Made by a program: the position numbers and the translations under genes. The notes under the pieces were generated by a model. That model worked only from the letters and a program-made list of their open reading frames with translations. It did no database searches and was not told where the DNA came from. From Alphaproteobacteria bacterium (lineage in GTDB: Bacteria > Pseudomonadota > Alphaproteobacteria > UBA9219 > RGZA01): a stretch of DNA of 64,000 nt. This document shows positions 1 to 40,852 of this stretch, piece by piece. The stretch is from the NCBI GenBank assembly GCA_028278105.1, contig JANQEX010000043.1, positions 1,055 through 65,054 on the forward strand, read 5' to 3'. Position 1 is the first letter of the stretch, and every line of letters starts with the position of its first letter.

Positions 1-498
1 ATAGACGAAGCCGCCTTCCGAACCGATCAGCGCCGCCACCTGCGCGCCCGCCTTGTCGCTGATCTCCGGAAGCCCGGAGGGGATCGTGGAATAGACCATG
101 AAGCGCCATTTCTGGTCCGTCACATCCAGCTTTTCGATCATCACCCTTATCTGGTGGCCGAAAGCATCGTAATAGGTATTGCCGGAGCCTTGCGCAAACG
201 TCGGCGACAGCAACCCCACGTTGGAATCCGTCATATAGGAAAGCGGAAGATCGGCGGGCACATCGACCGCATAGGAGGCGGGGTCAAAGCTGCCCACCGC
301 GATGCCCGGCGACAGAAGGCGCCGGGTGGCCTCCACGACCTGGCGGTATTGCTGCGCGGCCGACTGGGCCTGGAGCTGGGCGTTGCCGCTGCTGATAAGG
401 TTCCACAAGCCGCCAAAGATCAGGCCGCTGATGCCAAGAACGATCACAAGCTCCAGAAGCGTGAAGCCGCGTTCACGATGGACACGAAAAAAAGGCAT
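1..498 (-). CDS. Type IV pilin-like protein (minor pilin/PilV-like), partial. The start codon is at 498 and the C-terminus lies beyond the window start
   Basis: Reverse-complement translation from ATG at 498..496 gives MPFFRVHRERGFTLLELVIVLGISGLIFGG..., a class III prepilin signal (G|FTLLE). No stop codon occurs before position 1. The provided ORF track does not list it because it runs off the window edge. Confidence 0.6.
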   Translation of the reverse strand, partial: MPFFRVHRERGFTLLELVIVLGISGLIFGGLWNLISSGNAQLQAQSAAQQYRQVVEATRRLLSPGIAVGSFDPASYAVDVPADLPLSYMTDSNVGLLSPTFAQGSGNTYYDAFGHQIRVMIEKLDVTDQKWRFMVYSTIPSGLPEISDKAGAQVAALIGSEGGFVY

Positions 499-584
499 CG
501 GACACCTCGTCGCTCTGACTTGCCAGAAGAAACCGGTTACCACCACATCTCCACGTTACGCCATCGGCGCGCCGGGTCAATGAC

Positions 585-1172
585 CTATGGGGTGCATTGC
601 ACCGGGCTGATGATCCCGCTGGCGTTCAAAGGCACCGCGTCGCCGCCGCCGGCCGGAATGCCCGAAACCGTCACGATATAAGACACCCCGTCGTCGCTGA
701 CCGTCACGTCAATCGCCCGCACGCCGCCGTCATCCCGCACCGGGCTGAATCTGTAGTCGTTGCTCCTGAACTGCTTGTGAAACTGCTGCGCCACCTGAGC
801 CGCCGAATAGCCGCCGTATGAACTGCCCGGATTAATATATGTCAGCACCAGCCGCGAAGGGTGCGTGCCGTAAATGCCGTCGAAGACAACCGTTTCCCAG
901 TCAAAGCCCTGATAGTTCGGACGGAGATTCGTGACATCGGAATAGGCGATGGTGCCCGCCGTCGTGCTGAACGTGCCCGTTGCAACGTCGAGCGGCGGGG
1001 TGCAGGCGTACTCGATGGCGATATTCTGCCAGATCAGCAGTTGCCCCCCCACCCCATGCATCTGCGCGGCGAGGAACAACGACAGGGCCCCCACGATCTG
1101 CAGGAACAGACCGATGATGGCGATAAACAATACGGCGAAAGCGAACATGAACATCGTGGCGATTATCCCCAA
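585..1172 (-). CDS. Hypothetical membrane protein inside the pilus cluster (two N-terminal hydrophobic segments)
   Basis: 195-aa ORF, N-terminus MGIIATMFMFAFAVLFIAIIGLFLQIVGALSLFLAA. No prepilin peptidase or lytic transglycosylase motif is recognisable. It sits between the major pilin and the minor pilin. Confidence 0.35.
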   Translation of the reverse strand: MGIIATMFMFAFAVLFIAIIGLFLQIVGALSLFLAAQMHGVGGQLLIWQNIAIEYACTPPLDVATGTFSTTAGTIAYSDVTNLRPNYQGFDWETVVFDGIYGTHPSRLVLTYINPGSSYGGYSAAQVAQQFHKQFRSNDYRFSPVRDDGGVRAIDVTVSDDGVSYIVTVSGIPAGGGDAVPLNASGIISPVQCTP

Positions 1173-1177
1173 ACGCC

Positions 1178-1228
1178 TTTAACAAAAACATAACAAAAGG
1201 GGCGCCTTTCTCGAAGGCGCCCCTTTAC
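1178..1228 (-). terminator. Rho-independent terminator downstream of the major pilin gene
   Basis: Perfect palindrome aaggggcgcctt-tctcg-aaggcgcccctt at 1196..1226. On the minus strand it is followed by TTTTGTTATGTTTTT. Confidence 0.5.
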
Positions 1229-1249
1229 AGTCACACACTGTTCAGCCGA

Positions 1250-1831
1250 TTAACCACGCAGGCTGAAAACAAAGAAAGGCGCGGCCTGATCGGTGCAGGT
1301 GATCGACGTGTTGATGTCCGACGAATTGGCGATCAGGTTCAACACTTCCGCCGTTCCGCTGTTGACGACCAGCAAGCCCGATCCGCGAGCCACGTTGGCG
1401 CTGCGGGTCAGGAAATTGCGGCAGGCGTCGGCCTTCATGCTGTTGAAGGTCACGCGGAAAGACGCGATGCCGTAAGTGGAGGTCGTGTCGTTGACATCCA
1501 CGCCACCGCCCCATTGGTGGCGAAGGATCTTGGCGCTGCCGGTATCCACCACCATGTCGGCGGGAAGCACGCCAAGATTGTACAATTCGCTAACGTCCTC
1601 CGTGATGGTGTCGCTGGGGTTCTGGGCGTAAAAGCCGCGAATCCCCTGCACCAGGGCCAGCAACTGCTTGGCGGCATTCTGCTGGCGCATATTCTCATAG
1701 GCAGACCCGGCGGCGGCCCAGATGCCGCCCACGATCAATCCTACGATGCCCAGCACGATGGCGGCTTCGATCAGGTTGAACCCTGCCTTGCGCGCGATGC
1801 TGCGTATGGAAATTTTTTGAACATTCATCAT
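1250..1831 (-). CDS. Type IVb major pilin (PilS-like prepilin with long leader)
   Basis: MMNVQKISIRSIARKAG|FNLIEAAIVLGIVGLIVGG, a type IVb prepilin with cleavage motif G-F-x-L-I-E. GGAGGA lies upstream of the ATG at 1831. The ORF track's longer version (to 1987) is an upstream extension. Confidence 0.7.
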   Translation of the reverse strand: MMNVQKISIRSIARKAGFNLIEAAIVLGIVGLIVGGIWAAAGSAYENMRQQNAAKQLLALVQGIRGFYAQNPSDTITEDVSELYNLGVLPADMVVDTGSAKILRHQWGGGVDVNDTTSTYGIASFRVTFNSMKADACRNFLTRSANVARGSGLLVVNSGTAEVLNLIANSSDINTSITCTDQAAPFFVFSLRG

Positions 1832-1970
1832 GACCCATCCTCCGGGATACGGTTTGGCTTCAGACACCAAGGGAAGAATGCGAATCACCATAGAACAAAA
1901 CAGCCCTCCCTTACAGGCTTTTTTATTCACCAGCCTGTGGCGAATCGGAACGAAACCGGCCCCGAATCCG

Positions 1971-3068
1971 TCACCAGCCCCCACCACCCGTGTTCTGCAT
2001 TTCGGTAAGAATGGTGGTGATATTCAAAATCGTCAGCATCGCCCAGGCAATCACGCCGCCCACGCAGAGTAACCCGCCCGTGCGGACGGCTTGCGACTGG
2101 GTATTCAGAACCTCGATCTGCTCTTCAATCCATTCCTTGGTCACGGCGTCGATCACCTGACCCACATCCGACCGCTCGGACAGGATTTCCAGGTCCAGCG
2201 CCACGGTCGGGTCCGGGAAATAGTAGTTGCCGGCGCGCAGGGCCTCGCCAAGATTGCGGCCGCGCAAGATCTCCTCGCGCGCCGAACGCAGCCGTTCCGC
2301 AAGCCAGGGCGTGGCTTCTTCCTCAAGGATTTCCACGGCCCGTTTCAAGGGCACTTGCGCGCGAAGCAGCGCGGACAGGCCCAGCAGGAAGGCCGAGCCC
2401 TGCCAGATGCGGTACCAGGCCCAGGGTGGATAACGGTCGAACCGCACGCGCAGCCGCCCCCGCCAGTAGGGCAGCGTTCCGGCAACCAAAAAGATCACGC
2501 CGGCCACCACGACCACCAGGATCCAGCCCTGCTGGCTGACAAAATCCGACACGCTCGCGATTCCGCCCATGGCTTCCATCACCTTGGGCGGCGCGTTCTT
2601 GCGCATGTTCTCGACCAGATAAACGCCGAACAGATAGAAAACGCCCGACAGCAGCCCCAGCATGAACAGCGGATAGGCCACCGCCATGACGATGGCCGAG
2701 CGCATGCGCTGGGCGCTGTCGCCCACATGCATGATGGCGGACAGGGCGTTCGCCACCTGGCCGGATTCCTCGCCCGCGCGGATCATGTAGAGATCGGCCG
2801 AAGGCACCCAGCCGTTCATCGCCTCGCTGAGCGTTTCGCCCGCGCGGTCCTTTTGCAGCCATTCGCGCAGGGCCAGCGCCTGCGGCCTTTGCGGCGCGCG
2901 CCCCATGTCGGACGCGTTGTACCACAAGCGCTCCAGGGCCCGCGACAGCGCCTCGTTCTGCGCCAGCATGCCCTGAAGCTTGCGGTAAATCCGAAAGCGC
3001 ATCTTGCGGTCATTGCGCATGACAAACCGGGCGTATTTGCGGCGGTAATTTTCCATCAGAGCACCCAT
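1971..3068 (-). CDS. Type IV pilus inner-membrane platform protein (GspF/PilC/TcpE family; R64 PilR-like)
   Basis: 365 aa with three hydrophobic blocks and GspF-like repeats. Position between the ATPase and the pilin is typical. An alternative start at 3056 would abut the ATPase stop. Confidence 0.7.
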   Translation of the reverse strand: MGALMENYRRKYARFVMRNDRKMRFRIYRKLQGMLAQNEALSRALERLWYNASDMGRAPQRPQALALREWLQKDRAGETLSEAMNGWVPSADLYMIRAGEESGQVANALSAIMHVGDSAQRMRSAIVMAVAYPLFMLGLLSGVFYLFGVYLVENMRKNAPPKVMEAMGGIASVSDFVSQQGWILVVVVAGVIFLVAGTLPYWRGRLRVRFDRYPPWAWYRIWQGSAFLLGLSALLRAQVPLKRAVEILEEEATPWLAERLRSAREEILRGRNLGEALRAGNYYFPDPTVALDLEILSERSDVGQVIDAVTKEWIEEQIEVLNTQSQAVRTGGLLCVGGVIAWAMLTILNITTILTEMQNTGGGGW

Positions 3069-5167
3069 TTATCGCGGCGGCCCAAACGCTCTTCCACCAT
3101 GCGCACGTCCTTGACCGTGGCGCACGGCCCGGCCTCGGTTTCGGCATCGATGGGAGAAACATTGCCGTCGCGGATTTTTTCCAGCGCATGCCAGGCCATC
3201 GTGATGCCGTTGAGGCCGAAGGGCGAGAGCCAGTACCGCGTGGCTTCTTCCAGGCGGTTGTCGGCCAGATAGGCCATCAGCTTGGCGTCCGTTGCAATGA
3301 CTTCCGCCACAATGGTACGGCCCAGGCGTCCCTTGTAGCAATGGCGGCAGCCTTCCGCATTGACGAAATGCACGTTGCCAAGATCGGGCTCGTGCAGGTT
3401 GTCGTACGGATCAACGCCTTCCCTGGGCAGGCTGCGCGACGCCTGCATGACCGCCAAACCGGCCCGCACGCGGCGGATGATCGGGGCGTAGGCGGGATCG
3501 TCGGCCACCTTCGCCGCGGGGATGCGGCAATAGGGGCAAAGACCGCGCAACAGGCGCTGGCAGATCATGCCGCACACAAGGTGGTGATCGTAAACAAGAT
3601 AGGGCTCCGCGCCCAAATCCCGCAGGCGCTGGGGAATGGCCATGGCCGAATAGACGTGCAAGGTGGTGTAGACCTGGCGGCCCGTGAGGGCGAGGCGGAA
3701 AATAAAGCGCGCCGTCTGCAAATCGCGCGTCTCGCCCAGCATCACGATGTTGGGGTCCAGACGCAGGATGCAGCGCATGATTTCGGTAAAGCTGCGCTCG
3801 CGCTGCTCGTCCTTGACGGTGGCGGACACGCCGATCTGGCTGGCGCCCAGCACGCCGCCTTCGGGCGGATCCTCAATCATGTAGCATTTCTGCTCCATGC
3901 CGGTTTCGGCCATGTGCCGGTTCAGCATCACGCGCAGCGTGGTGGTTTTGCCCTGGTTGACGGGACCGGCAAAAATGCGCATGCCGCCCGGCACGCGGCG
4001 CAGGAAACGGATCAGCTCGGTCTGTTCCTGGTTGAAGCCCAGATGGTCCACATCGGCCTGGGCAAAGGATTCGCCAAAGATGCGCGCCGAGTCATATTGC
4101 AGGCGCATGTTCAGGTAACGGCCGCCGTCGGTCAGGGGCACCCACTGGCAACGCACGGCGATCACGCCTTCGGGCAAGGCGATGGTGTCGGGACCGGACC
4201 CCGGCGTGAGCATCGCGGCCTGCGGCTCCAGCCAGTTGGCGGTGGCGCCCGACTGGCCGGACGAATGGGAATAGACCGCGGACAGGAACTGCTCGCCTTC
4301 CTTCTGCGTCCAGGTTTCCCACTGGCGCATGATCCCGTCCACGCGGAACTCCAGACGGGTCCGGCCGCCGCTGGCTTCGATATGAATGTCGTTCGCGCCG
4401 GCATCGACCGCGGCCCGGATCGTGCGCACAATCTGCCGGCGCACCGCGTTCTCGTCGAGACGCAACGAAGAAATCTGCCGCTCGAAATAATTATAGGCCG
4501 AGCGGATCACATCCGGCGTAACCAGCCGCGCCGGACTGACCGGAAAGCCCATGCGCCGCGCCGTGGCGGCGACCGATGTCACCAGCGGCGAGTTGCGATG
4601 GCTGGAGCTGACCAGCCACAGCCCGCTATCGAACAGGGCGCACAGATTGCGCGATTCTTGCGGAATCTTGATCGGTCCGCCGATGGCCGTCAGCAGATTG
4701 CCCTCAAAAACGATCTGGGAGGAATCGTCTTCGGGAATTCCGGATTCTTCCACGGTCGCCTGCGTGCGCAAGGCGGGTTGCCCGGCGCCATTTTTATCCT
4801 TGGCGCCGGGAGCCACCGCCGAAGCAAGGGGGACCCGCCGCCGGCGGACGGCCTCGGCGGACGGCATGGGGGCGGAGCGATGCTCGCCGCCATGCTGGGG
4901 CTGCCTGGACATGGGCTTTTGCGGCGGCGCACCGGGCGCGGCTCCCTGTCCGCCGGGCGGAGGCGTGGACATGGAAGGTTGCTTGGGGGGGCCGCCGGCC
5001 TGACTCATATGTAGGACGTCCTTTACATCTTTCCCAGCCGCCGTTTCGCCATTGTCCCGCGGAAACAGCGTCTCAAACGGATCATCTTCCAGAGCGGATA
5101 ATTCGGATGGCTCAGGACCTTGGCCGCCCAAATGATCGATGAAACGGGCGAGAATTGACTCGGCCAT
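3056..5167 (-). CDS. Type IV pilus assembly ATPase (GspE/PilB family; R64 PilQ-like) with Pro-rich N-terminal extension
   Basis: Walker A GPVNQGKTTT, Asp box and His box. C-terminal tetra-Cys CPYC...CRHC. The start ATG overlaps the stop of the upstream gene by 1 nt. Confidence 0.85.
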   Translation of the reverse strand: MAESILARFIDHLGGQGPEPSELSALEDDPFETLFPRDNGETAAGKDVKDVLHMSQAGGPPKQPSMSTPPPGGQGAAPGAPPQKPMSRQPQHGGEHRSAPMPSAEAVRRRRVPLASAVAPGAKDKNGAGQPALRTQATVEESGIPEDDSSQIVFEGNLLTAIGGPIKIPQESRNLCALFDSGLWLVSSSHRNSPLVTSVAATARRMGFPVSPARLVTPDVIRSAYNYFERQISSLRLDENAVRRQIVRTIRAAVDAGANDIHIEASGGRTRLEFRVDGIMRQWETWTQKEGEQFLSAVYSHSSGQSGATANWLEPQAAMLTPGSGPDTIALPEGVIAVRCQWVPLTDGGRYLNMRLQYDSARIFGESFAQADVDHLGFNQEQTELIRFLRRVPGGMRIFAGPVNQGKTTTLRVMLNRHMAETGMEQKCYMIEDPPEGGVLGASQIGVSATVKDEQRERSFTEIMRCILRLDPNIVMLGETRDLQTARFIFRLALTGRQVYTTLHVYSAMAIPQRLRDLGAEPYLVYDHHLVCGMICQRLLRGLCPYCRIPAAKVADDPAYAPIIRRVRAGLAVMQASRSLPREGVDPYDNLHEPDLGNVHFVNAEGCRHCYKGRLGRTIVAEVIATDAKLMAYLADNRLEEATRYWLSPFGLNGITMAWHALEKIRDGNVSPIDAETEAGPCATVKDVRMVEERLGRRDKWVL

Positions 5168-5943
5168 TAGTCCATAGCTTCCGTTCCGCCCCGTACGATG
5201 TAATTGTCTGACGGAATCGTTAGAACTTTTCTTTTGCCCTTTTTCACAATGGAAACGCTCGTCAGGGTAATGCTCTTGACCCTGCTTCCATCCGGCAGTT
5301 TCTCACCGGGGCCAACGTTGAGCGTCCTTTTGTCCGACTCGATCAACGCCTTATAGCTCCCGTTGGCTCCCATGATCCGGCGCACCACATACTTGCCGGA
5401 CGCCGGGGGCGGCGGACGCTTGGTCACCCGCGGCCGGGGCATGATCGGCGCGGAAGAATTGGCTCGCACCGGCGGCAGTTTCAGCACCGAAGCCGGAATG
5501 CCTTTGCCGATGCCCAGTTGTCTCCGGGCCGGTTTCTTCTTCTCATCACGCAGTTTTTTCAGCTCAACCTGCCTCTTTTCGATATCAAGCAGCAAATCAA
5601 GACGGTTGATGGCATCCTGCGCGCGAATCATGTCGTCCAGATTGATGGGATCGGTTTTTTGCAGGGCCTTCACCGCATCCCTTACGATCTGCGGCTCCTT
5701 GGGCGATGTGGTGAGGTTGGACTTATCCCCGGCGCGGGATGACGGCCGGGCCATTCCCGCGGGAGACGCCGTATGGGACGTCATGGGCGGCGCGCTTCCC
5801 GCAATGGGAAGCGGCACGGTGGCCGTCGCCGGCGGGAGGTCCCTGGCCAGAACCTCCGGCCTTTCGGCGGCGAGCGCCCCCGGCATGCCCAGCCCCAGAA
5901 GCAGGGTTCCCGCCATGACGGCGGTCAGGGTTTTCTTGCGCAT
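5167..5943 (-). CDS. PilP-like pilus biogenesis protein (signal peptide, Lys-rich linker, C-terminal beta domain)
   Basis: MRKKTLTAVMAGTLLLGLGMPGALAAE signal peptide. Position between PilO-like and the ATPase. ATG at 5943 lies 1 nt after the upstream TGA. Confidence 0.4.
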   Translation of the reverse strand: MRKKTLTAVMAGTLLLGLGMPGALAAERPEVLARDLPPATATVPLPIAGSAPPMTSHTASPAGMARPSSRAGDKSNLTTSPKEPQIVRDAVKALQKTDPINLDDMIRAQDAINRLDLLLDIEKRQVELKKLRDEKKKPARRQLGIGKGIPASVLKLPPVRANSSAPIMPRPRVTKRPPPPASGKYVVRRIMGANGSYKALIESDKRTLNVGPGEKLPDGSRVKSITLTSVSIVKKGKRKVLTIPSDNYIVRGGTEAMD

Positions 5944-5944
5944 A

Positions 5945-7198
5945 TCAACCTCCCCTTTTCTCGTAAATGGTCGCATCCATCGACCAGCTTATTCCGTCCC
6001 AAATAATTTTCCGAATGATCAGACCCGGCATGTCCTTGAACAACCCGATATAATCCCATGGCGGAACCTTGCCGCTGTAACGCACGCCGCGCTTGCGCCA
6101 GGGCGGCGGCGGCGGCGGCGGGGGGTTTTTGACCCTGGACGGCGGCTGCACGACCGGTTTGTCGTCGGGCAGGCGCGAAAGCGAAACCGGCCAGGCTTTG
6201 GTCAGGACAAGATGGGTCACTTCCTTTTCCTCCAGAAGCGCTTCGGCGCCGCGCGGCTGCAGGGTTCCCGACCGGAAAAGCTGCGTGGCGTTCACGCCCT
6301 GAACATTCAGCAAGGCCTTGTCGGGAATCGCGGCGAGCTTTCCGGAATCGCGCCGCCAGATCACGCTTAAGCCGCCGCCCTGACAGGTGGAAATGCCTTT
6401 CTTCCAGCCATACTGGCTGGCCGCCGCCGTTTCAAAATTCTGCCGGCACGCCTCGAACGCCTCGGACGCCACCGGTTTTTTCTCCCAGACCTTGGCATAG
6501 ACTTCTTCGGCCGGCGGCCATTTCCATTCTTCCACCATGCCGCCGATAACGCCTTTTTGCTGGGCGCGCTGGGCGGCCAGGCGTTCCCTTTCAACACGAT
6601 CCTGCTCCGCCTGGTATTGAAGGGCGATAAAGACCAGAAGCACAATCGCCCCGACCGCCGCCGCCGCATAGACCAAAAGCTTAAGCGGCAAATGGACCGG
6701 CTGCAGGCGGCAATCGGTGCGGTCCTGCAGAAGAAGCGGCAAGGGCGTGGGATCCGAGCCGGGAATTGACCAGCCGTCCGGCGCGTAGATGCGTTGCACG
6801 CCGCCAAGGGATATTTCCTGGAGCAGCCGCTCGCGCGCGGCCTCGTCGCTGTCGAAAAGAAGGTCACCGTCGGGCGCAACAAGATCGTCGCGCACCACCG
6901 TGACCCAGGTTCCTTCCCGCAGGCGGAACGCGCCCGCCCAGGAGCCCGGCTGCACATTGGCCAGCGACGCCGCCAGGGTCGGCATGCCCACCTTGTGCCC
7001 CAGACTGGATTGGGCCAGGCCATATTGCGGGACGGAAACCGACTTGCTGACTCCGCGAACGCAATAGAAATCCGCCTGCTGGCCGGGCTGAAGCGCCGCC
7101 TCACGCGCCGCCTGCGCCACGCGGCCGCTGGGCGAAGGCTGCCAGTACAGGCCCACCGCATAGGTGCGCCGGCCGACTTTGACAACGCCAGAGGCCAT
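5945..7198 (-). CDS. PilO-like type IVb pilus accessory protein (bitopic: cytoplasmic N-domain, TM, periplasmic domain, poly-Pro tract)
   Basis: N-terminus MASGVVKVGRRTYAVGLYWQP resembles the R64/PAPI-1 PilO family. Single TM LLVYAAAAVGAIVLLVFIAL. Overlaps the secretin stop by 1 nt. Confidence 0.5.
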   Translation of the reverse strand: MASGVVKVGRRTYAVGLYWQPSPSGRVAQAAREAALQPGQQADFYCVRGVSKSVSVPQYGLAQSSLGHKVGMPTLAASLANVQPGSWAGAFRLREGTWVTVVRDDLVAPDGDLLFDSDEAARERLLQEISLGGVQRIYAPDGWSIPGSDPTPLPLLLQDRTDCRLQPVHLPLKLLVYAAAAVGAIVLLVFIALQYQAEQDRVERERLAAQRAQQKGVIGGMVEEWKWPPAEEVYAKVWEKKPVASEAFEACRQNFETAAASQYGWKKGISTCQGGGLSVIWRRDSGKLAAIPDKALLNVQGVNATQLFRSGTLQPRGAEALLEEKEVTHLVLTKAWPVSLSRLPDDKPVVQPPSRVKNPPPPPPPPWRKRGVRYSGKVPPWDYIGLFKDMPGLIIRKIIWDGISWSMDATIYEKRGG

Positions 7199-10564: not shown

Positions 10565-10650
10565 GGGGGCCAGTTTCCTAAAGAATGGTTAAAAAAGCTT
10601 TATTGCATCATGCCGAATTGAAACAAACCGCGCTGCGTCCCTGAAAATCA

Positions 10651-32128: not shown

Positions 32129-32542
32129 CTAACAAAACCCTCCGTAAACCGAGGGCGTACCCATAAGGGACGAAATCTTTTCCATCTTCTTGAAGCCAAG
32201 GGCGTTGTTGCCCATGGCCAGCGAATTGTTGACCCACGCCATGAAAGGCGGCAGGCCCGCGATCACGCCCCCCACGCCGATGCGCACCACGCCGTGCGAC
32301 ATGGGCGTCTGCGACGGATTTTCCGCATGCATCTTCAATTTGTTCGCCCCTCCCAAAACCATCAGCCCGCCGAACGTATAGGCAAGGCCGGAGATGATCG
32401 TCGGCAGATCCTTCATCGCCTCGACCACGGCGGCCGCCGTCACCTGCATGTTCTGCCCATGCGCGAATTCCGGCCACGCCGCGGCAATCACCAGAGCGAG
32501 GCTGAGGCATTTGACGACATTCATGGGAACCCGCCGCATCAT
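32129..32542 (-). CDS. Small secreted/membrane protein, paralogue of 31669..32046
   Basis: 137 aa, ISGLAYTFGGLMVLGGANKLKMHAENPSQTPMSHGVVRIGVGGVIAGLP aligns by eye with the neighbour. Confidence 0.35.
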   Translation of the reverse strand: MMRRVPMNVVKCLSLALVIAAAWPEFAHGQNMQVTAAAVVEAMKDLPTIISGLAYTFGGLMVLGGANKLKMHAENPSQTPMSHGVVRIGVGGVIAGLPPFMAWVNNSLAMGNNALGFKKMEKISSLMGTPSVYGGFC

Positions 32543-32731: not shown

Positions 32732-33721
32732 TTAGCTGAGTATCTGGAAGCCCATCGTGCGCTCGATGACCTTGATGAAGCCGGGCATGTTCACCAGCAG
32801 CGTGCCGCCGATGATATGGGTAAAGGCCTGGCCCTTGGTGGCCTGCCCCTGCCCGTCCAGCGCATTGCGCAGCACAATAAAGCCGCGCACGAAGCTCAAG
32901 AGGCCGACAATATAAAGGAAGGTGAATACGGCCGAAACAGCATTGTTGAAGCGATCCATGTTGAAGCTTCCGCCCGGTGCATAGGCGATGCTGCTGTAAC
33001 GCACCACGTCGCGTTGATTCATGCCGTCGCCGAACAGCGTGCCAAGCGAAACGTCCAGCGTCTGCCCGATGGCCAGCAGCATCGCGCCGATCACAAGATT
33101 GGCCAGGATGGGCGTGAGCGTGTTTGATTTGGCGTCCGCGCCAAAGCGCGACAGGCGCACCATGTTCCAGAACACCATCGCCGCGCCGAGAATGATGCTG
33201 ACGAGGCTGATCAGCGATCCGATGGGCCCCTTGATGTTGTTGACGAAATTCATCAGCATTTCGTCAAGCGGCACCGCCGTGCGCGGATCGACGCCGGGTT
33301 CGTTACTGCAGCCGATATTGCTGGTATAGCCCTCCGGCGTCTCATACAGCGACTTGTGCAGGAACTCAATCAACCAGGGCAGCGTGTAAACGAACGCGCC
33401 GACGATAATCCCCAGCAATCCGTCGCGCAGCGGCTTGTTGGGATCGGAAGAGCGTTTGATAAGATCGAACGCGCCGCGCAGGAATATCGCGCCGCCCGCC
33501 ACCCACGCAATCGCCTGTATCAAATGCGGGATGCTGGACGAGTTGCGGAAGGCGTTGCAGAACATCTGCCCGGCCGATTCCGCCTTCACGCCGACATCCT
33601 GGGCGAAGCCGAGAACCGGATAAAAATAGGCAACCACCAGCGCGGCCACAAATACCGGGGCAAGGCTCTCATAGCGAAAAAACGGCGCGCGCATATCCTG
33701 TCCTGAAAAATCCTTCTTCAA
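32732..33721 (-). CDS. Polytopic inner-membrane protein of the T4BSS locus, unassigned
   Basis: 329 aa with at least 6 hydrophobic helices. Confidence 0.35.
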   Translation of the reverse strand: MKKDFSGQDMRAPFFRYESLAPVFVAALVVAYFYPVLGFAQDVGVKAESAGQMFCNAFRNSSSIPHLIQAIAWVAGGAIFLRGAFDLIKRSSDPNKPLRDGLLGIIVGAFVYTLPWLIEFLHKSLYETPEGYTSNIGCSNEPGVDPRTAVPLDEMLMNFVNNIKGPIGSLISLVSIILGAAMVFWNMVRLSRFGADAKSNTLTPILANLVIGAMLLAIGQTLDVSLGTLFGDGMNQRDVVRYSSIAYAPGGSFNMDRFNNAVSAVFTFLYIVGLLSFVRGFIVLRNALDGQGQATKGQAFTHIIGGTLLVNMPGFIKVIERTMGFQILS

Positions 33722-33885: not shown

Positions 33886-35163
33886 TTAGCGAACGCTGCC
33901 CTGCGTGCCTTCCACCAGCCAGTGGCCCGCCACCATGCGGATCGACACGATGGTGCCAAGCCCCGGCACCTTGTCGCCGGGAACGATACGGCGCAGATCG
34001 GTGGACATGCCTTCCGAAATCCAGGCCGAGCCGGGCTGGGCCGAACGCAGGATCCAGCCGCCGCCGGCCTTGGGCTTTGGCGCCGGGCGCGCGGGATAAG
34101 GTGTCGCCGTGGGAAGCGGGCCCGGAGCCGTTCCGTAGCTTCCTGTGGAAGGCCGCGCGCCGGATAAGCGGCCCATGCGCGCATTCACTTCGCGCTGGAG
34201 GCGCGAGGCCATGAAGTCGGAACTGGCTTTCTTTTCGCTTTTCGCCCGTGAGGACGCCGTGCGCGTTTTCTTTGATGTCTTTTTCTTGCGCGGCTTTTTC
34301 GCAACCGGCTTGTTCACGCGCTGCTCAAGCCTGGCGATTTTTTCTTCCAGCGCTTGCAGGTTCGCCTTCATGCCGTCGTCCGCGGCCGGCGGCGGAGGCG
34401 GCGCGGCTCTGAGCGCGCGCAATTCGCTGTCGATGCGTTCCTGATTGCCGCGGATTTCGTCAAGCTGCCGGCGCAATGCGGCGACTTCCTGGGTCAGGGG
34501 CGATTCCATCTGTTGCGGGACCGAGGCCGGTGGCAAGGGCGCCGTGCCCATCGTTTCCCGCGCCGGTTCCTGCGGTTGCGCCTGCGGCGCGCCGACGGGT
34601 TCCAGAATATATTCCGGGCCCTTGGTCACTTCCGTTTTCGGCGGCGGCGCCTCCTCCCGCGGCGGCGCCAAAGGCTCCACCTGCGCGAAGGGCGAGGGTT
34701 CCGGTTCTTCCGGCGCGGCCATCATGCCCTGTATCTGCTGCCAGCCCAGCACGCCAAGCACCGTCAACACCGCCAGGCCTCCCGCATAGGGGAGATATTT
34801 CAGATAGGCCGGCTTGTTTCCGTCGGCCATGCCGGGCGGCAGGTATTGCTCGGCCTGCGACCGGGCCTCGCCCATATCCTCGTCCTCGAAATCCGCCGGT
34901 TCATATTCGGCGTCCTGAACGTCTTCCCCTTCCGGGATCTCCCCGGCCTGAGGCTCGGCCAGGCCGGCTTCGTCAGCGTAACCGGGCTCGGAATCCGTAA
35001 AATCATCGACCGGCTGCTGCTCGTCCTGCCAGGACTCCTCTTCCATGGGCGCGGCGGGCTCGCCGCTTTCCTGCGGCGCGAAAGCGGAATCGTCGTCGAA
35101 GCCGGGCTCCGGCTCAAAGCCCGGTTCCTGCGGATGGCGTGTTTTGGGATCGTCATTGTCCAT
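33886..35163 (-). CDS. DotF/IcmG-like bitopic protein (acidic cytoplasmic N-terminus, single TM, coiled coil, Pro/Lys-rich region, C-terminal beta domain)
   Basis: TM LAVLTVLGVLGW. Positional equivalence with icmG upstream of icmE. Confidence 0.35.
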   Translation of the reverse strand: MDNDDPKTRHPQEPGFEPEPGFDDDSAFAPQESGEPAAPMEEESWQDEQQPVDDFTDSEPGYADEAGLAEPQAGEIPEGEDVQDAEYEPADFEDEDMGEARSQAEQYLPPGMADGNKPAYLKYLPYAGGLAVLTVLGVLGWQQIQGMMAAPEEPEPSPFAQVEPLAPPREEAPPPKTEVTKGPEYILEPVGAPQAQPQEPARETMGTAPLPPASVPQQMESPLTQEVAALRRQLDEIRGNQERIDSELRALRAAPPPPPAADDGMKANLQALEEKIARLEQRVNKPVAKKPRKKKTSKKTRTASSRAKSEKKASSDFMASRLQREVNARMGRLSGARPSTGSYGTAPGPLPTATPYPARPAPKPKAGGGWILRSAQPGSAWISEGMSTDLRRIVPGDKVPGLGTIVSIRMVAGHWLVEGTQGSVR

Positions 35164-35210: not shown

Positions 35211-36605
35211 TTATTGTGCGCCACTATGTATGACGCTTATGCCGCCCTTCGCAAGAGAGGATTGCGTGGCGGCGTCCAGAGGCGTGACCGTCGTACCCCC
35301 ATAGGGATTAACGATTTGGGAGTCCAGGTTGGTATAAGGGTTTGAAGGCCCATAAACCGGGGGAGAAACGCTTCGGATATTCGTTTCCACCGGCGCGCCG
35401 CTTATATTGTCGGTCATCGAATTGACGAAAAACAGCCCCATCGGGGTGCCCGCGGCGACCCGGATCAGGGGCCGGGTGGCCGCCGCCTCGTCGCGGAAGA
35501 AGCTGCCGGCGGTCTGCGCCGCCTCGGACAGGCCGCGATAAATGCCGTCCTTGACCCCCTGCTTGCTTTCCTCGAACACGATCACATTTCCATTTTCGGT
35601 GACCACGCTGTTGCTGGGCGCACTGATGGCCGAGCCGAACCCTTCAAGGAATCCGGCCGCCGCGGGCAGAATCACGCGGGAGAAGTAACGGTTGTCCTTT
35701 TCGGTCACAAGGCCGGGCAGGGTGGAGTTGGGATCAAGCGCCACCGCGTCGATGGAATAATCCTTCCGGCGATAGGTCAGCTTGGTGAACTTGAGGACCA
35801 GGTAATCGCGCGTGGCCTCGAACTGGCCGATCACGCGCGCGCCCGTGAACCGTCCCGACATCACCTCCGCCATGATCGGCCCCGGCGCGTCGGAATTGGC
35901 TTCCACCACGAGCTGGGCGTAGGAGATCGTGCCGGCGGGGATCAGCACCCGTGCGCCCGGCGCCGTCTTGTCCAGCTTGTTGCCGAGGTCCTTTTTCAAG
36001 GTGGCGGGGTCGATCACCTGCACCAGCTTCACCCCGCCCGGCCGCCACGCATCGAACAGCGAGGTCATCTGCTGCTGCATCTTGGCCAGAAGATCGCCGT
36101 CGATCAGTTCCACGGGCTCCTGGCTGGGCGCTTGCGTCACCGTGTTGTCGGGCGGAATGTTGGGACGGAATTCGGCCAGCGGATCATATTGCGATTCCCG
36201 TTCCTCCGGCCCAAGGCCCGCCGTGGTGACATCGCCGGAAACCGGCGTGGGGATGGCGCTCCTCTCCTGGCGGATGGCTTCCTCGGCGCGCTTGCGCGAG
36301 GCGTCGTTCACGGCGTCCACGTAAGCGGGCGGCGCCTTGCTGCCCGGCGTCGCCGTCAGGCCCGGCACGCCGCCCACCGTGATGCCGGCGCGGTCCCCGC
36401 CGTCGCCGCCGGAAAGGAGCGCGATGATCGCGGTGGTCAGCGCCCCCGCGCCCACCACCAGCACGAACAGCTTGAAAAGCGGGCTGCCCTGCCAGGCGGC
36501 CTTGATGTTTCCCGCCACGCCCGGGTTCGGGGCGGCCCGCGGCGCGTCGGGCGGCGCGTCATCCTGAAAATCGTCTTCGAAATCGTCGGGCGGCGGCTGG
36601 GTCAT
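35211..36605 (-). CDS. dotG: DotG/IcmE (VirB10/TrbI-family) T4BSS core protein
   Basis: N-terminal TM, Pro-rich linker, C-terminal VirB10-like domain (...GARVIGQFEATRDYLVLKFTKLTYRRKDYSIDAVALDPNSTLPGL...). Confidence 0.6.
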   Translation of the reverse strand: MTQPPPDDFEDDFQDDAPPDAPRAAPNPGVAGNIKAAWQGSPLFKLFVLVVGAGALTTAIIALLSGGDGGDRAGITVGGVPGLTATPGSKAPPAYVDAVNDASRKRAEEAIRQERSAIPTPVSGDVTTAGLGPEERESQYDPLAEFRPNIPPDNTVTQAPSQEPVELIDGDLLAKMQQQMTSLFDAWRPGGVKLVQVIDPATLKKDLGNKLDKTAPGARVLIPAGTISYAQLVVEANSDAPGPIMAEVMSGRFTGARVIGQFEATRDYLVLKFTKLTYRRKDYSIDAVALDPNSTLPGLVTEKDNRYFSRVILPAAAGFLEGFGSAISAPSNSVVTENGNVIVFEESKQGVKDGIYRGLSEAAQTAGSFFRDEAAATRPLIRVAAGTPMGLFFVNSMTDNISGAPVETNIRSVSPPVYGPSNPYTNLDSQIVNPYGGTTVTPLDAATQSSLAKGGISVIHSGAQ

Positions 36606-36606: not shown

Positions 36607-37830
36607 CTACTCTTCCTTTGACGCCACGATGCGGGCCCGGATCAAGGACCCCCCATCCGACATCAGCAGCACCGGAGTCTGGTTCAACTCGTAAACCGTC
36701 GTGCCGTCCGCCGAGGAAACGCTGGCGTCCCAGCTTGGCGACAGCATGGTCAGCGGCGTGCGCACGAACATGCGGTCGTTCAACGTCCAGGCCAGGGTGC
36801 GCGCATCGGCCCCGGCCAGCCGCACACGGCGCGCATCGGGCGGCGGCGCGTTGTCGAGGAAGGTCATGATCAGGGCCGAGCCGGCGTCCAGCCGGCGGCG
36901 TCCGATCAGCGACAGCTTGGCGTTGGGCCCAAGCTGGGGGACGCGCGCGTCAAAACGGTAATCCACCGTCGAGCCGCCCGCGGCCAGCTTGAAGATGATC
37001 GGCGTCGACAAGTCCTGCAACAGCACCGACAGGTTGCCATAGCCAAAGCGCGTCAGCGGCATCACGCGCACCACATGGGTGCTGCCCTCGCCGCCGCCGG
37101 TTTTGGTCACCTCGAAATTGCCGCCGATGCCCAGATCCATGATCGGCCAGGGCTGGCCGGTGGCGTCAAGGACGGTGATGGTGGTGACATAGCCCGATGC
37201 GACATTCACCGTGGGCGGATCGCCGCCCGGCTCCAGCGAAAGCGTCTTGATGCGCACCTGCCCGCGCGGCTGGCCGCCGGCGGGCGGAATGGCCGATTTC
37301 TGGGTGCGCTCATAGCGGCTCATCACGTCGCGCACTTCGCTTGGCCCCAGCGGCACGAGGCCCTCATACGCGCGCTCGAAGGTGTCGGTCAGGCGCTTGC
37401 GGCGGCGGTCGTAATAGTTCTGCTCGGCTTCGGTCCGCACCGCGTTCTGCAAGGTCTGGTCCGGCAGGGGCAAGGGCGGCGGCGCGGCATAATAGGTGGT
37501 GGCAAGCTGCGGCGGCGGCGCGCCGTCCTGTCCGGGCTCAAAGGCGGCGGACGGCAGGGGTGCGGGCGCGTTTTGGCCGGCACCGGTGGATGGCAGGACT
37601 TCCGTGGGCGCGGGCGGGGGCGTCAGCGCTTCGCTGGCGGCATCGCCGCCGGCGATGGGACGCGCCAGCGCCGTTGGCGGCGGCAGGGCCGGAACCTCGG
37701 AAGGGGGCGGCAGATCCTCGGCCACTCCCTTCAGCGGAAGGAGCGCAAAAAGGCACAACGCCGCGAAAGACGCAAGGAAAGGCGCGCGCTGCGAAAGAAG
37801 CGGAGCATGAAGGCGGAAAGGGCGAATCAT
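36607..37830 (-). CDS. dotH: DotH/IcmK (VirB9-like) outer-membrane core protein
   Basis: Signal peptide, Pro-rich region and a beta-rich C-terminal domain. Position between dotI and dotG. Confidence 0.5.
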   Translation of the reverse strand: MIRPFRLHAPLLSQRAPFLASFAALCLFALLPLKGVAEDLPPPSEVPALPPPTALARPIAGGDAASEALTPPPAPTEVLPSTGAGQNAPAPLPSAAFEPGQDGAPPPQLATTYYAAPPPLPLPDQTLQNAVRTEAEQNYYDRRRKRLTDTFERAYEGLVPLGPSEVRDVMSRYERTQKSAIPPAGGQPRGQVRIKTLSLEPGGDPPTVNVASGYVTTITVLDATGQPWPIMDLGIGGNFEVTKTGGGEGSTHVVRVMPLTRFGYGNLSVLLQDLSTPIIFKLAAGGSTVDYRFDARVPQLGPNAKLSLIGRRRLDAGSALIMTFLDNAPPPDARRVRLAGADARTLAWTLNDRMFVRTPLTMLSPSWDASVSSADGTTVYELNQTPVLLMSDGGSLIRARIVASKEE

Positions 37831-37922: not shown

Positions 37923-38648
37923 CTATTCCCCCTGATGCCAGCCCTGCCGGACGCCGAGTCCGGCGGCCAGTTCCTCCCAGCCGTCGATGGCCACCCCTTC
38001 GGGATGCTTGAGGGTGGAGGCGCGGATCAGGGTCAGTTGCAGGACCGACCGCTTATGGGCCACTTTCGATCCCGCCTGATAGGTTGTGATGATCGGCACC
38101 TGCACCACCCAGCGGTCGGTGCCGAAATAGGGACCCTCCAGCACCACCACGGCGCCGTCGGTGGCGATGGCGGTGAGCACCTGCTGGTTGTTCTTGATCT
38201 TGTCGAGGCGGCCATACCGCAGATAGGCGCGGGCGAACTTGTTCCAGGCCCGCCGGGTGAAAAGGTGACGGGCGTTCAGCAGGCGCTCGTCGGCGTTGTT
38301 GAAGCCGAAGGTCAGCACCTGCGTCACGACATTCATGGCCATGTTGATGATGGCGGTGTGGGTCAGGTTCGGCTCGTCCAGCGCATGGATGTACTGCACC
38401 CGCTCCGGCAGGGCGTCATGGCCCAGCACCACCAGGTGGTGATAGATGCGCGGCGCGAAGGCGATGGCCGTCAGGATCGTCGTGCCCATCAGGATGGCGA
38501 TCAGGTAGCTTTGCAGCACCACCAGCGCCCGGAAAAATTTCGCCATGCCGGGGGTTGAGCGCGGCTCGTTCTTGGTGGCGGCGAACAGAAGATGCGCCAC
38601 CTGCGTGGGCGAAAGCCGCGTATGCACCTCCGGCCGCTCGGCCTTCAT
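37923..38648 (-). CDS. DotI/IcmL-like (VirB8-fold) paralogue
   Basis: TM LVVLQSYLIAILMGTTILTAIAFA followed by a periplasmic domain. Start uncertain (Mets at 38768, 38648 and 38546). The 38768 start would overlap the upstream gene. Confidence 0.4.
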   Translation of the reverse strand: MKAERPEVHTRLSPTQVAHLLFAATKNEPRSTPGMAKFFRALVVLQSYLIAILMGTTILTAIAFAPRIYHHLVVLGHDALPERVQYIHALDEPNLTHTAIINMAMNVVTQVLTFGFNNADERLLNARHLFTRRAWNKFARAYLRYGRLDKIKNNQQVLTAIATDGAVVVLEGPYFGTDRWVVQVPIITTYQAGSKVAHKRSVLQLTLIRASTLKHPEGVAIDGWEELAAGLGVRQGWHQGE

Positions 38649-38716
38649 CGGCGCCAGTTTCTTCGGGGCGAGCGCGACCGGCGCTTCCGGCGGAGTGGGA
38701 AGCGTGGGCGAAGGGC

Positions 38717-39379
38717 TCATCGTCGCAAGGGGGGCCGGAAGGCGGCGTTGTCCTGGCCGATAATCCACTGGCCAAAGGCGATGCCGTCAGGGATTTCGAG
38801 GAAGTTCACGCGGTCCACGCGCACCTGCAACACGCCGCGCACCGGCTGCGGCGCATCCTGCCCGTCATAGACGATGCTGATGGGCATGCTGAGATACCAC
38901 GAGTAGGTGCCGTTCTTGCCCACGCCCTTCTTGAGCACCTGCGGCGCGCCCTCGATGCGAAGCTGGCTGACCAGCTTCTTCTCCTCGATGGCCTCGATCA
39001 GGCGGGATTCCTTCAAGGCGCTGTGGAAGTCGGTGCGGCCGGTCAGGGTGAAGCGGCTGTTCACCCCGTCCAGATGCGTGCGGTAGTTCAGGTAATCCAT
39101 CTGCATGACTTCGCGCGCGGTCTTGGCGGTCCAGGTAATCACCTGGTCGTCGGCGAAGTAGGGCTCGTTCACCGGCTCGATGGGCATGATCCGCCCGTCC
39201 ACATTGGTGGCGAAGAACACATGCTTCACGCTGGCGGTCAGCACCAGAATGATGACGATGCCGATCAAAACCGCGATCACCGCGCCTTGCACCAGCGCCA
39301 CCTTCAGCAGGCCGCGGTAACCGTCCCGGTAAAAACTGTTCCGGATCATCACGGTTTGTATGGCGTCGCGCTGGTTCAT
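38717..39379 (-). CDS. dotI: DotI/IcmL-like T4BSS inner-membrane protein
   Basis: N-terminus ...MIRNSFYRDGYRGLLKVALVQGAVIAVLIGIVIIL recalled from memory as the IcmL/DotI motif. First gene of the long minus-strand operon. Confidence 0.5.
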   Translation of the reverse strand: MNQRDAIQTVMIRNSFYRDGYRGLLKVALVQGAVIAVLIGIVIILVLTASVKHVFFATNVDGRIMPIEPVNEPYFADDQVITWTAKTAREVMQMDYLNYRTHLDGVNSRFTLTGRTDFHSALKESRLIEAIEEKKLVSQLRIEGAPQVLKKGVGKNGTYSWYLSMPISIVYDGQDAPQPVRGVLQVRVDRVNFLEIPDGIAFGQWIIGQDNAAFRPPLRR

Positions 39380-39382
39380 TGG

Positions 39383-39440
39383 GAGAGGTTCGAGGGTTCG
39401 AAGCTGCGTAGGTTCGAGGGTTTGTGGGTTCGAGGGAGGG
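39383..39440. promoter_or_regulatory. GGTTCGA direct-repeat array upstream of dotI operon start
   Basis: gagaggttcgagggttcgaagctgcgtaggttcgagggtttgtgggttcgaggg. Same motif as at 17061..17126. Confidence 0.4.
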
Positions 39441-39502
39441 TTACGCCTGTTCTCAAGCCCCGGACGTCATTCTCCCCGCAGGCCCGCGCACCCTCGTACC
39501 CA

Positions 39503-39805
39503 CGAACCTTCGAACCTAATTAAATATCGTTACCGAGTGATTAACTTCGAAAGGTTCGAAGGACCGGAGGGACGAGGGTTCGAAGGAAAAACAAGGCCTG
39601 ATTTCGAAGAAGAATCTTCTTCGTCCCTTCGAACCTCCGAACCTTCGAACCTAATTAATATCGCTACCGAGTGATTAACTTCGAGAGGTTCGCAGGTGCG
39701 GAGGGACGAAGGTTCGAAGAAAAAACGAGGCGGAGCCACGAGAAACAAGGCCTGATTTCGAAGAAGAATCTTCTTCGTCCCTTCGAACCTCCGAACCTGC
39801 GAACC
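39503..39805. repeat. Two tandem copies of a ~136/167-bp unit with internal palindromes
   Basis: Each unit: cgaaccttcgaacctaattaa(a)tatcg(t/c)taccgagtgattaacttcga...ggagggacga(g/a)ggttcgaag...aaggcctgatttcgaagaagaatcttcttcgtcccttcgaacctccgaacct. Unit 2 carries a 15-bp insertion. Confidence 0.75.
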
Positions 39806-39810
39806 TTGTT

Positions 39811-40275
39811 TTATATTCCCTTTTCCAGATCCACGTCGGGAAGGCCGGAGCCCTGGCGGTATTCGGGGGAATCCTTGCAGTTCTGGCAAATGCGGTTGTG
39901 GCGGCCCTGACTCTGGAAGCGGCTGAGGCACATCAGGCAGATGCGGTGCGAAAGCGGCGCGGGCGTCGTCTGCAACTGGCTGGAGAGCCGCGCCATGTTG
40001 CGCATATTGGCCTGGTTCATCTCCTCGTAGGAAAGTTTCTTCGGTTTTCTTCCGGGCGCAAAACGGCGCTGAAGGCCAAGACGCGCCGCGCGGGTCATCA
40101 CCGCCGCGACGGAACGGTTCAATACCTGCGCAATCGCGTCGGGCTTTTCGCCTTTCTGCCAAAGCTCGGTCAGCCGCACGTCCTGCTCGGTCCATGAAGG
40201 CATGCCAAGCGTCGGCGATGTCGCGCGCGGCGCGGTTTCCTGCGTCTGGGGTTTATCCGAATCTTCGGGCGGCAA
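39811..40275 (-). CDS. GcrA-like regulator (N-terminal GcrA DNA-binding domain, Cys-rich C-terminus)
   Basis: MPSWTEQDVRLTELWQKGEKPDAIAQVLNRSVAAVMTRAARLGL matches the GcrA N-terminal domain. The start is probably the internal Met at 40203. Confidence 0.5.
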   Translation of the reverse strand: MPPEDSDKPQTQETAPRATSPTLGMPSWTEQDVRLTELWQKGEKPDAIAQVLNRSVAAVMTRAARLGLQRRFAPGRKPKKLSYEEMNQANMRNMARLSSQLQTTPAPLSHRICLMCLSRFQSQGRHNRICQNCKDSPEYRQGSGLPDVDLEKGI

Positions 40276-40431
40276 AATCGTGATCCGTTTTTATTTCGCG
40301 GCCTGTTGATAAGTCGCGCCTTCCTTTATAGCGCTTCTGAAAATAATTGAAACTATAAAGTTATCCTGTTTTGGCTTTTTAGACATTATTTTTTGTACGA
40401 AATAATTAATTTTCTTTTTGTTTTAATATTT

Positions 40432-40767
40432 TCAGGCACTGGCGTTTTCACGCAACTCGTCTTTATCGACGCGCCGGACACGAATTTTTCCGCCCTTGCG
40501 CGCGATTTGCGCCAGATCATATTCCATTTGCAGTTTCACCCATGTTTCGGCCCGGCCGCCAAAAGCCTTGGAAAGCCTGACCGCCATTTCGGGAGAAATG
40601 CCGCTTTTTCCGTTCACAAGATTGTTGAGGGCCTGCCGCGTCACGCCTAAAAGCCGGGCGCCCCTTGTCACGGACAGGCCGAGCGGCTCAAGGCAATCAT
40701 GCCTGACATGACGGCCGGGATGGGGTGGATTTTTCATGCGCATCGCTTTTTTTCCCTTACTTCTCAA
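40432..40767 (-). CDS. HigA-like XRE-family HTH antitoxin, solitary
   Basis: ...LGLSVTRGARLLGVTRQALNNLVNGKSGISPEMAVRLSKAFG. No higB-like ORF is upstream. Only 85 nt separate it from the fhs stop. Confidence 0.55.
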   Translation of the reverse strand: MRSKGKKAMRMKNPPHPGRHVRHDCLEPLGLSVTRGARLLGVTRQALNNLVNGKSGISPEMAVRLSKAFGGRAETWVKLQMEYDLAQIARKGGKIRVRRVDKDELRENASA

Positions 40768-40852
40768 TGATAGTCGATGAAATCCACATCATACGCATCG
40801 CCTGCTTCAAATTCCTCTTGCATACTGACAATTGTCACTTGTCAACCGCTTT

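Follow-up and report, generated by a model that had tools for sequence, protein, structure and literature searches.

A predicted Dot/Icm-like type IVB secretion system joined to an IncI-type thin-pilus operon on an alphaproteobacterial chromosome

The window analyzed here is a 64,000-nt stretch of contig JANQEX010000043.1 (assembly GCA_028278105.1, an alphaproteobacterium), and the minus strand of its positions 1–40.3 kb is tiled by co-oriented genes. As judged from predicted protein families, these genes encode the machine of an I-type (Dot/Icm–IncI; mating-pair formation type I, MPF_I) type IVB secretion system (T4BSS) and, in an adjoining operon, an R64-type type IVb thin pilus, both modules being identified by Pfam and NCBIfam models and by direct BLASTP comparison with the R64 proteins. 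The locus is ~41 kb long and extends from a gcrA-like gene (position 40275) to the stop codon of pilV, ~0.9 kb to the left of the window. We regard it as a relaxase-less, vertically inherited, Dot/Icm-like T4BSS that keeps an IncI-type thin pilus and lacks a detectable DotA or IcmX, in an uncultured alphaproteobacterial clade; the literature searched makes no more than passing mention of such a system.

Secretion machine and thin pilus

Nearly every assignment made in the preliminary description of this DNA (i.e., ~40 kb of co-oriented minus-strand pil and T4BSS genes, with pilL-N-O-P-Q-R-S-(X)-V, dotD/dotC/dotB/icmT, a TrbB-like DsbC, dotM/dotL, icmB, icmJ, and icmE/K/L) was borne out by family matches and by BLASTP against R64 (Table 1), and the profile searches that it proposed recovered I-type T4BSS and type IVb pilus families. 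Its IcmG/DotF assignment was not borne out: the acidic coiled-coil protein in question corresponds to DotF in position only.

Matches to NCBIfam equivalog models all fall below cut-off except that of IcmT, which suggests that the machine forms a separate branch. Within that frame, several of its parts (DotB, DotG, DotL) appear, by sequence comparison, nearer to Legionella Dot/Icm than to R64/IncI1. DotB scores 346 bits against Legionella DotB (6GEB) vs. 207 bits against a second DotB entry (6GEF, which we take to be a Yersinia DotB), and 389 bits against the NCBIfam DotB model vs. 233 against TraJ; for DotG the DotG/IcmE model gives 110 bits vs. 63 for TraO. DotL shares ~40% identity over 650 aa with Legionella DotL (6SZ9, 457 bits), as compared to 31% over 459 aa with R64 TrbC. 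DotM and DotN match type IVB coupling-complex models, and DotL also matches the TrbC conjugation model (354 bits). The VirB4-family ATPase IcmB matches 3,784 plasmid records, some of them annotated IcmB; searches of PDB sequences with IcmB, with PilV, and with the 503-aa and 603-aa proteins of the variable slot described below returned no significant match.

Not every part of a known machine was recovered. DotA/TraY and IcmX/TraW gave no BLASTP, tblastn, Pfam, or NCBIfam match in the window or in 91 related loci, and signal and transmembrane (TM) prediction found no large polytopic DotA-like protein in the window; a component essential to known T4BSSs is therefore absent, has diverged beyond detection, or is encoded elsewhere. 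No counterpart was detected for R64 TraV, TraW, TraX, TraY, NikA/B, Rci, PilU, PilM, or Exc, and the IcmS/IcmW/LvgA adaptors have no NCBIfam or Pfam match among the small open reading frames (ORFs). In agreement with the preliminary description, Pfam and NCBIfam scans of the ORFs of 1–40.8 kb gave no relaxase or integrase domain, and R64 NikB found no tblastn match in the related loci.

The pilus operon is equally recognizable. PilS has, in translation, the leader ...ARKAG/FNLIEAA and a C-terminal Cys pair, and the adjoining 189-aa protein (the X of the gene order), which has no Pfam or NCBIfam match, has homologues at the same position in the related loci L005, L008, and L094. The window cuts pilV; the full protein, recovered from the overlapping Logan contig L001, comprises 471 aa and its gene reaches 917 nt past the left window end. 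PilV combines a prepilin N-terminus (RERG/FTLLE; Pfam N_methyl, E 3e-6) and a weak BLASTP match to R64 PilV with a C-terminal Peptidase_S74 tail-fibre intramolecular chaperone domain (E 9e-15), and is predicted to be a minor pilin or tip adhesin. If so, the fusion of PilV to S74 hints at a novel design for an adhesin at the pilus tip. Just upstream of the S74 domain, PilV bears short tandem peptide repeats, GGxLN[ML] (L001, 10935–11120), that recall the fibre/beta-helix repeats of phage tail proteins. Shufflon-type repeats were sought downstream of pilV and none were found; nor did Rci or PilU homologues emerge by BLASTP in the window or by tblastn in the related loci. The closest relatives, L005 and L008, have a CpaA peptidase in an adjacent Tad locus. 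L094 carries four tandem PilS/bundlin-like pilin genes (12717–15558) vs. one in the window.

Table 1. Predicted features of the locus and of its right flank, in window positions
Feature	Position	Strand	Basis or remark
pilV, 5′ part (first 166 codons)	<1–498	-	runs off left end
189-aa protein X, one N-terminal TM helix	585–1154	-	between pilS and pilV
pilS, major type IVb prepilin	1250–1831	-	Pfam PilS E 6e-7; BLASTP R64 PilS
pilR, platform protein, T2SSF	1971–3068	-	R64 PilR E 8e-43
pilQ, assembly ATPase, T2SSE, 703 aa	3056–5167	-	R64 PilQ E 1e-42
pilP	5167–5943	-	Pfam/BLASTP R64
pilO	5945–7198	-	Pfam/BLASTP R64
pilN, secretin	7198–8817	-	PilN-family model 267 bits, just below cut-off 288
pilL, lipoprotein, TcpQ domain	8885–9940	-	Pfam/NCBIfam/BLASTP R64
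IcmT/TraK	10094–10564	-	NCBIfam IcmT_TraK 84 bits, cut-off 40
HepT	10739–11101	-	toxin–antitoxin pair with MNT
MNT	11098–11391	-	toxin–antitoxin pair with HepT
DotB/TraJ ATPase	11435–12616	-	Pfam/NCBIfam and BLASTP R64
DotC/TraI lipoprotein	12595–13497	-	Pfam T4SS_TraI E 2e-74
DotD/TraH lipoprotein	13466–13993	-	Pfam DotD E 8e-28
Small membrane protein	14149–14463	-	accessory block, conserved
TrbB-like DsbC/DsbG thiol:disulfide isomerase	14467–15672	-	true start probably later
SLT/TrbN-like lytic transglycosylase	15669–16211	-	Pfam/NCBIfam
318-aa conserved protein	16162–17118	-	accessory block; no assigned function
Two orphan genes (603 or 475 aa; 328 aa)	17573–20313	-	variable slot; GC3 ~0.60
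Sec-signal protein pair, 503 aa and 178 aa	20500–22557	-	variable slot; fast-evolving
DotL/IcmO/TrbC, type IV coupling protein	22765–25200	-	coupling block
Small ORF	~25221–25900	-	between dotL and dotM; no assigned function
DotM/IcmP/TrbA	25678–26916	-	coupling block
DotO/IcmB/TraU, VirB4-family ATPase	26935–30027	-	R64 TraU 27% identity/986 aa, E 8e-102
BrnA-type antitoxin	30593–30895	+	strain-specific insertion in repeat-bearing gap
IcmJ/DotN/TraT, 4-Cys motif	30955–31650	-	NCBIfam/Pfam
Two small conserved proteins	31669–32046; 32129–32524	-	
TraQ/DotE-like polytopic protein	32732–33694	-	
425-aa acidic coiled-coil protein at DotF/TraP position	33886–35163	-	position only
DotG/IcmE/TraO	35211–36605	-	Pfam TrbI E 6e-13
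DotH/IcmK/TraN	36607–37830	-	Pfam DotH_IcmK E 8e-70
DotI paralogue	37923–38720	-	
DotI/IcmL/TraM	38717–39379	-	
gcrA-like gene, 154 aa, first gene of the locus	39811–40275	-	GcrA-like N-terminal DNA-binding region
Solitary HigA antitoxin-type helix-turn-helix protein	40432–40767	-	above NCBIfam cut-off; no HigB; genome-specific
fhs	40853–42517	-	chromosomal flank
petA	~42663–43292	+	
petB	43555–44832	+	
petC	44829–45599	+	

Chromosomal site and inheritance

A locus so rich in homologues of R64 Tra, Trb, and Pil proteins could be an integrative and conjugative element (ICE) or an integrated IncI-like plasmid, with relaxase, oriT, integrase, and attL just to the left of the window. The preliminary description had read it in this way, as an integrated conjugative element continuing leftwards. 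The source genome is visible only 54 nt past pilV (L001 adds 972 nt at the left, of which these 54 lie beyond the gene), a circumstance that leaves room for such a reading, and the junctions were therefore read from relatives.

Relatives are plentiful. Searches with PilQ and with DotH gave hundreds of homologues apiece at 55–85% identity, nearly all in metagenome-assembled genomes (MAGs) labeled Alphaproteobacteria, and the system-bearing contigs in the genomes examined reach 0.25–1.8 Mb (more distant DotL relatives, up to 2.56 Mb). At the pil end the relatives have the same order, DotD-DotC-DotB-IcmT-PilL...PilV, with the S74 domain on PilV, and in four of five pilV is the last gene of the locus. 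Directly after pilV comes a Tad/Flp pilus locus in L005 and L008, the two closest, and RluA with a sigma-70 gene in L094; L095 keeps this order as far as pilS and two small genes, no pilV-like gene being called there, and NhaA and glycosyltransferases come next. At the opposite end, the locus of the relatives begins with a 132–157-aa gcrA-like gene preceded by acnA, which adjoins the locus in five of them (L009, L092, L093, L096, L097) and is missing from the whole window. Beyond the gcrA-like gene lie acnA and fhs-petABC in L009 and L092 and acnA only in L093; in all, fhs-petABC was seen in four of the five relatives with an acnA end. No relaxase or integrase was seen in the flanks of the relatives at either end (five pil ends, five acnA ends). 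The claim of an element continuing to the left is not supported by these relatives, in which ordinary chromosomal genes follow the pil end.

The right edge proposed earlier, at ~40.3 kb, stands, as does the solitary HigA beside it; the gcrA-like gene, formerly read as a boundary marker, is instead the conserved first gene of the locus. Its profile scores are weak (17.8–23.5 bits), with the L093 homologue reaching 27.4 bits, above the Pfam cut-off, and its product is 71–76% identical to homologues at the same position in four relatives; we regard it as a candidate regulator.

An empty site, which the preliminary description had proposed to look for in related strains, was sought with cytochrome b from the flank, two good matches, both from relatives more distant than such strains, being taken without selection for T4SS genes. 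Both genomes (L096, a 775-kb contig, and L097, a 249-kb contig; cytochrome b 73% identical) carry the system at the same site, in the order DotG-DotH-DotI-DotI-gcrA-like-acnA-fhs-petABC-TPR-AmiC...panC...lptC, and no empty site was found (2/2 occupied). Seven contigs carry both petB and DotH matches. Between the window and relatives, housekeeping proteins share 63–68% (fhs) and 72–73% (petB) identity, and secretion proteins 79–82% (IcmB), 85–89% (DotB), 61–79% (DotH), and 68–76% (DotI). Across five genomes, pairwise T4BSS and housekeeping identities correlate at r = 0.90 with the same grouping (n = 10 non-independent pairs). The proposed comparison of composition likewise gave no difference between locus and chromosome: core and flank have GC of 0.637 vs. 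0.632, GC3 (GC at third codon positions) of 0.80 vs. 0.75, and relative synonymous codon usage (RSCU) correlated at r = 0.973, with only nested inserts deviating. Furthermore, one GGGTC/GACCC-rich intergenic repeat family is present in both locus and flank (22702–22766, 49039–49103, 60094–60297). Matched divergence, native codon usage, and this shared repeat family together argue that the locus is old and fixed in the chromosome, not recently integrated.

These observations leave an ICE very improbable, in our estimation. Toxin–antitoxin (TA) modules (HepT/MNT, BrnA, HigA) and low-GC inserts do lie in or beside the locus, as would suit one, but the TA genes were inserted in this strain and are not present in relatives, the ends seen in relatives (five pil, five acnA) abut ordinary chromosomal genes, both genomes chosen by cytochrome b hold the system at the same site, and its divergence and codon usage are those of the host.

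That the contig might instead be a plasmid or chromid is scarcely credible. Among plasmid records, the nearest IcmB homologues that carry an annotation do lie on alphaproteobacterial megaplasmids of Bosea, Rhizobium, and Methylorubrum (42–43% identity), but the Bosea plasmid locus is not syntenic, relatives' contigs reach 0.63–1.83 Mb, no rep or par genes were seen, and the flank (fhs, petABC, panC, kpsF, lptCAB, tRNAs) is colinear with relatives. The chromosomal location given in the preliminary description, on the strength of fhs, petABC, panC, lptCAB, and tRNAs, is upheld. Beyond fhs-petABC this flank holds genes for an AmiC-type amidase, panC, kpsF, lptC/A/B, tRNA-Ala, and tRNA-Leu; Rfam finds these two tRNAs only, 17 kb from the locus, and colinearity with L096/L097 extends over ~20 kb. 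Between orf255 and panC lies a cluster of exosortase (EpsH), GH16, Wzy_C, and glycosyltransferase genes (49000–57950) that ends at tRNA-Ala(GGC), is absent at this position in L096 and L097, and is probably a separate genomic island.

As to the lineage, the best cytochrome b relatives are all MAGs (top, 75% identity), some labeled “Bdellovibrionales bacterium,” where NCBI files Micavibrio; the nearest DotH relatives also include “Bdellovibrionales bacterium” MAGs, and one such contig has both petB and DotH matches. The NCBI labels of related MAGs are thus suggestive of a Micavibrionales-like placement. In that group, relaxase-less I-type systems (pT4SSi) have been detected by MacSyFinder in seven marine Micavibrionales MAGs, reported in one sentence (Needham et al., 2022; PMC9418006). 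The earlier remark that such systems are rarely described is accurate as to description (this one passing mention), not as to occurrence, given the hundreds of relatives in metagenomes.

Insertions, variable slot, and repeats

Several insertions interrupt the locus, and they bear on whether it is intact. The HepT/MNT pair sits between icmT and dotB in an insert (10650–11524) flanked by an 88-nt direct repeat (10650–10737 and 11437–11524, 94% identical) that is a duplicated 3′ end of dotB; the duplication looks like the footprint of the insertion event, and the pair is absent from all relatives compared. The two orphan genes of the variable slot have no family match and no homologue in the 91 related loci, and a search of 1.84 billion representative proteins gave only three distant homologues of the larger one. 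As a class, the strain-specific inserts are absent from all relatives and have lower GC3.

Such insertions—TA pairs, orphan genes, and repeat elements that interrupt operons—together with the failure to detect DotA/TraY and TraV/W/X might indicate a decaying, non-functional remnant of an ancient conjugative element. We give this reading very little credence: every recognizable gene has its full length and is intact, in relatives as well as here, core proteins share 60–89% identity across genomes whose housekeeping proteins share 63–73%, and the insertions are intergenic, duplicating rather than truncating gene ends.

Other parts of the locus are conserved. The accessory block (14149–17118) has homologues in the same order in L005, L008, L016, L030, L040, and L094. 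In the slot between dotL and the 318-aa gene, the pairing and location of the 503-aa and 178-aa proteins are conserved; the pair lies directly after dotL here, while the more distant relatives all keep a ~180-aa/~500-aa secreted pair at the opposite (far) end of the slot. Comparison by hhalign gave 77% probability for the 178-aa protein against family D and 16% for the 503-aa protein against family E, and a single-sequence AlphaFold model of the latter has a predicted local distance difference test score (pLDDT) of 37.6. The pair may possibly be peripheral or periplasmic parts of the machine. In more distant relatives (L016, 12383–15532; L012, L030, L040), the slot after dotL contains glycosyltransferase (GT1/GT4, GT25) and Wzy_C (O-antigen-ligase/PglL-like) genes, which might serve pilin glycosylation or cell-surface modification.

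Repeats occupy several gaps. A dispersed element of ~85–200 nt, a GC-rich hairpin (CACCCCCGCGAAGGCGGGGGT) followed by a T/A-rich run and resembling a miniature inverted-repeat transposable element (MITE) or repetitive extragenic palindrome (REP), is present in three copies in gaps of the locus (15456–15596, 17203–17345, 30274–30485), one of them beside the BrnA antitoxin gene. The leader between the gcrA-like gene and dotI (39380–39810) measures 430 nt vs. 16–196 nt in relatives and comprises two ~150-nt units (39523–39652 and 39657–39806) that contain internal inverted repeats and arrays of the octamer GGTTCGAR. Upstream of the 318-aa gene is a similar array (17063–17124). The arrays could be regulator binding sites or a mobile repeat.

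Proposed function and comparison with known systems

We read the locus, with moderate confidence, as a domesticated, vertically inherited chromosomal T4BSS with a contact pilus, probably delivering proteins into other cells. In the mechanism we propose, the GcrA-like protein would control the long co-oriented operons; DotC, DotD, DotH, and DotG, together with the DotF-position protein, would form the envelope-spanning core, and DotI (two copies), TraQ/DotE, and IcmT the inner-membrane part. DotO, DotB, and the DotL-DotM-DotN coupling complex would energize transport and select substrates, with the DsbC-like isomerase and the lytic transglycosylase aiding assembly. The PilLNOPQRS pilus, tipped by PilV, would dock the cell to a target cell, a role that PilV serves in R64, whereupon the substrate would be passed by contact through the machine. 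Since no relaxase or integrase is linked in the flanks seen in any genome examined and DotB and DotL are closer to Legionella, we take the substrate to be, most likely, effector proteins passed into bacterial prey or eukaryotic hosts instead of DNA of the element itself.

The same parts would also suit a domesticated conjugation machine that still moves DNA, with its relaxase elsewhere, whether by mobilization of chromosome or plasmid in trans or by DNA release or uptake as in the gonococcal genetic island (GGI) or ComB, the pilus acting as a mating-pair stabilizer. A complete coupling protein complex (DotL/M/N) and a thin pilus both serve DNA transfer in IncI plasmids, Dot/Icm itself can mobilize RSF1010, and the coupling protein matches the TrbC conjugation model at the score given above. 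However, no flank examined holds a linked relaxase, DotB, DotG, and DotL score nearer the effector-translocating Legionella system, and long conservation at a fixed chromosomal site would be unusual for pure DNA transfer; we therefore consider DNA transfer unlikely, if well above the other rivals.

Several points weigh all the same against our reading of a domesticated system that delivers proteins. Elsewhere, the thin pilus is known as a mating stabilizer of conjugative systems (R64, PAPI-1). Homology and family searches found no effector and no homologue of IcmS/IcmW/LvgA, DotA/TraY, or IcmX/TraW; the TA modules and low-GC inserts inside the locus are typical cargo of mobile elements; and a relaxase could act in trans, as the source genome is seen only at the window and 972 nt more, with its left junction visible for just 54 nt past pilV. 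The Micavibrionales-like placement is moreover indirect, and the cultured Micavibrio aeruginosavorus was reported to be without a T4SS (PMC3189940).

With protein delivery as the preferred reading, we advance one further, tentative and somewhat doubtful possibility: that the locus encodes the signature weapon for cell contact, or organelle for host interaction, of an uncultured clade that is possibly Micavibrio-like and lives by predation or with protists. In it, an IncI mating pilus, kept and re-armed with a tail-fibre-like PilV tip, would dock and the Dot/Icm-type machine would inject effectors into prey or host cells. Such a system would stand midway between conjugation and effector secretion, as a living intermediate, and a T4BSS would have been domesticated a separate time beyond Legionellales. 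Stable lineage-wide T4BSSs are, to our knowledge, textbook material in Legionellales alone; there they mark an ancient turn to life with host cells. A second lineage-wide T4BSS, if true, would be an obvious case to compare when asking how effector injectors arise from conjugation machines, and the locus points to an unrecognized contact-dependent lifestyle (predation, epibiosis, or association with protists) in an uncultured clade of wide distribution.

Among known systems, R64 (IncI1) shares the pairing of a T4BSS with a type IVb pilus whose genes, pilL-N-O-P-Q-R-S-V, stand in the same internal order, and detectable homologues extend to TraH/I/J/K/M/N/O/Q/T/U, TrbA/B/C, and PilL/N/O/P/Q/R/S/V, with the SLT protein resembling PilT. 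The differences are substantial, however: identities are only 21–31% and block order differs; the NikA/NikB relaxosome, Sog primase, ExcAB, shufflon/Rci, PilU, PilM/K/I/J, and detectable TraV/W/X/Y are lacking here; and the locus is chromosomal and vertically inherited. Where R64 switches its pilus tips by shufflon, PilV here has one fixed C-terminus bearing the S74 domain. The PAPI-1/ICEclc family (MPF_G) likewise has a chromosomal pilL-N-O-P-Q-R-S-V cluster with a conjugation-type machine and no dedicated prepilin peptidase in the cluster, but its apparatus is G-type and its members are true ICEs with integrase, relaxase, and tRNA attachment sites.

The I-type systems of alphaproteobacterial megaplasmids and IncP-7-like Pseudomonas plasmids are similar in IcmB/TraU (38–43% identity); unlike the present locus, they are plasmid-borne, and the Bosea locus examined lacks synteny with it and has neither Dot nor pil genes as neighbors. 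The pT4SSi of Micavibrionales MAGs (PMC9418006) is also a relaxase-less I-type T4SS of uncultured, Micavibrio-related Alphaproteobacteria, reported with no gene map, pilus link, synteny, or evolutionary analysis.

Finally, the locus resembles Legionella/Coxiella Dot/Icm in being chromosomal, without a linked relaxase, and conserved across a lineage, and its DotB, DotL, DotM, DotN, DotG, DotD, and DotI best match Dot/Icm models. It differs from Legionella in that IcmS/W/LvgA, IcmQ/R, IcmF/DotU, DotK, IcmV, IcmX, and DotA were not detected here, and from Legionellales at large in forming, in an alphaproteobacterial host, one contiguous co-oriented locus fused to a thin-pilus operon that Legionellales do not have.

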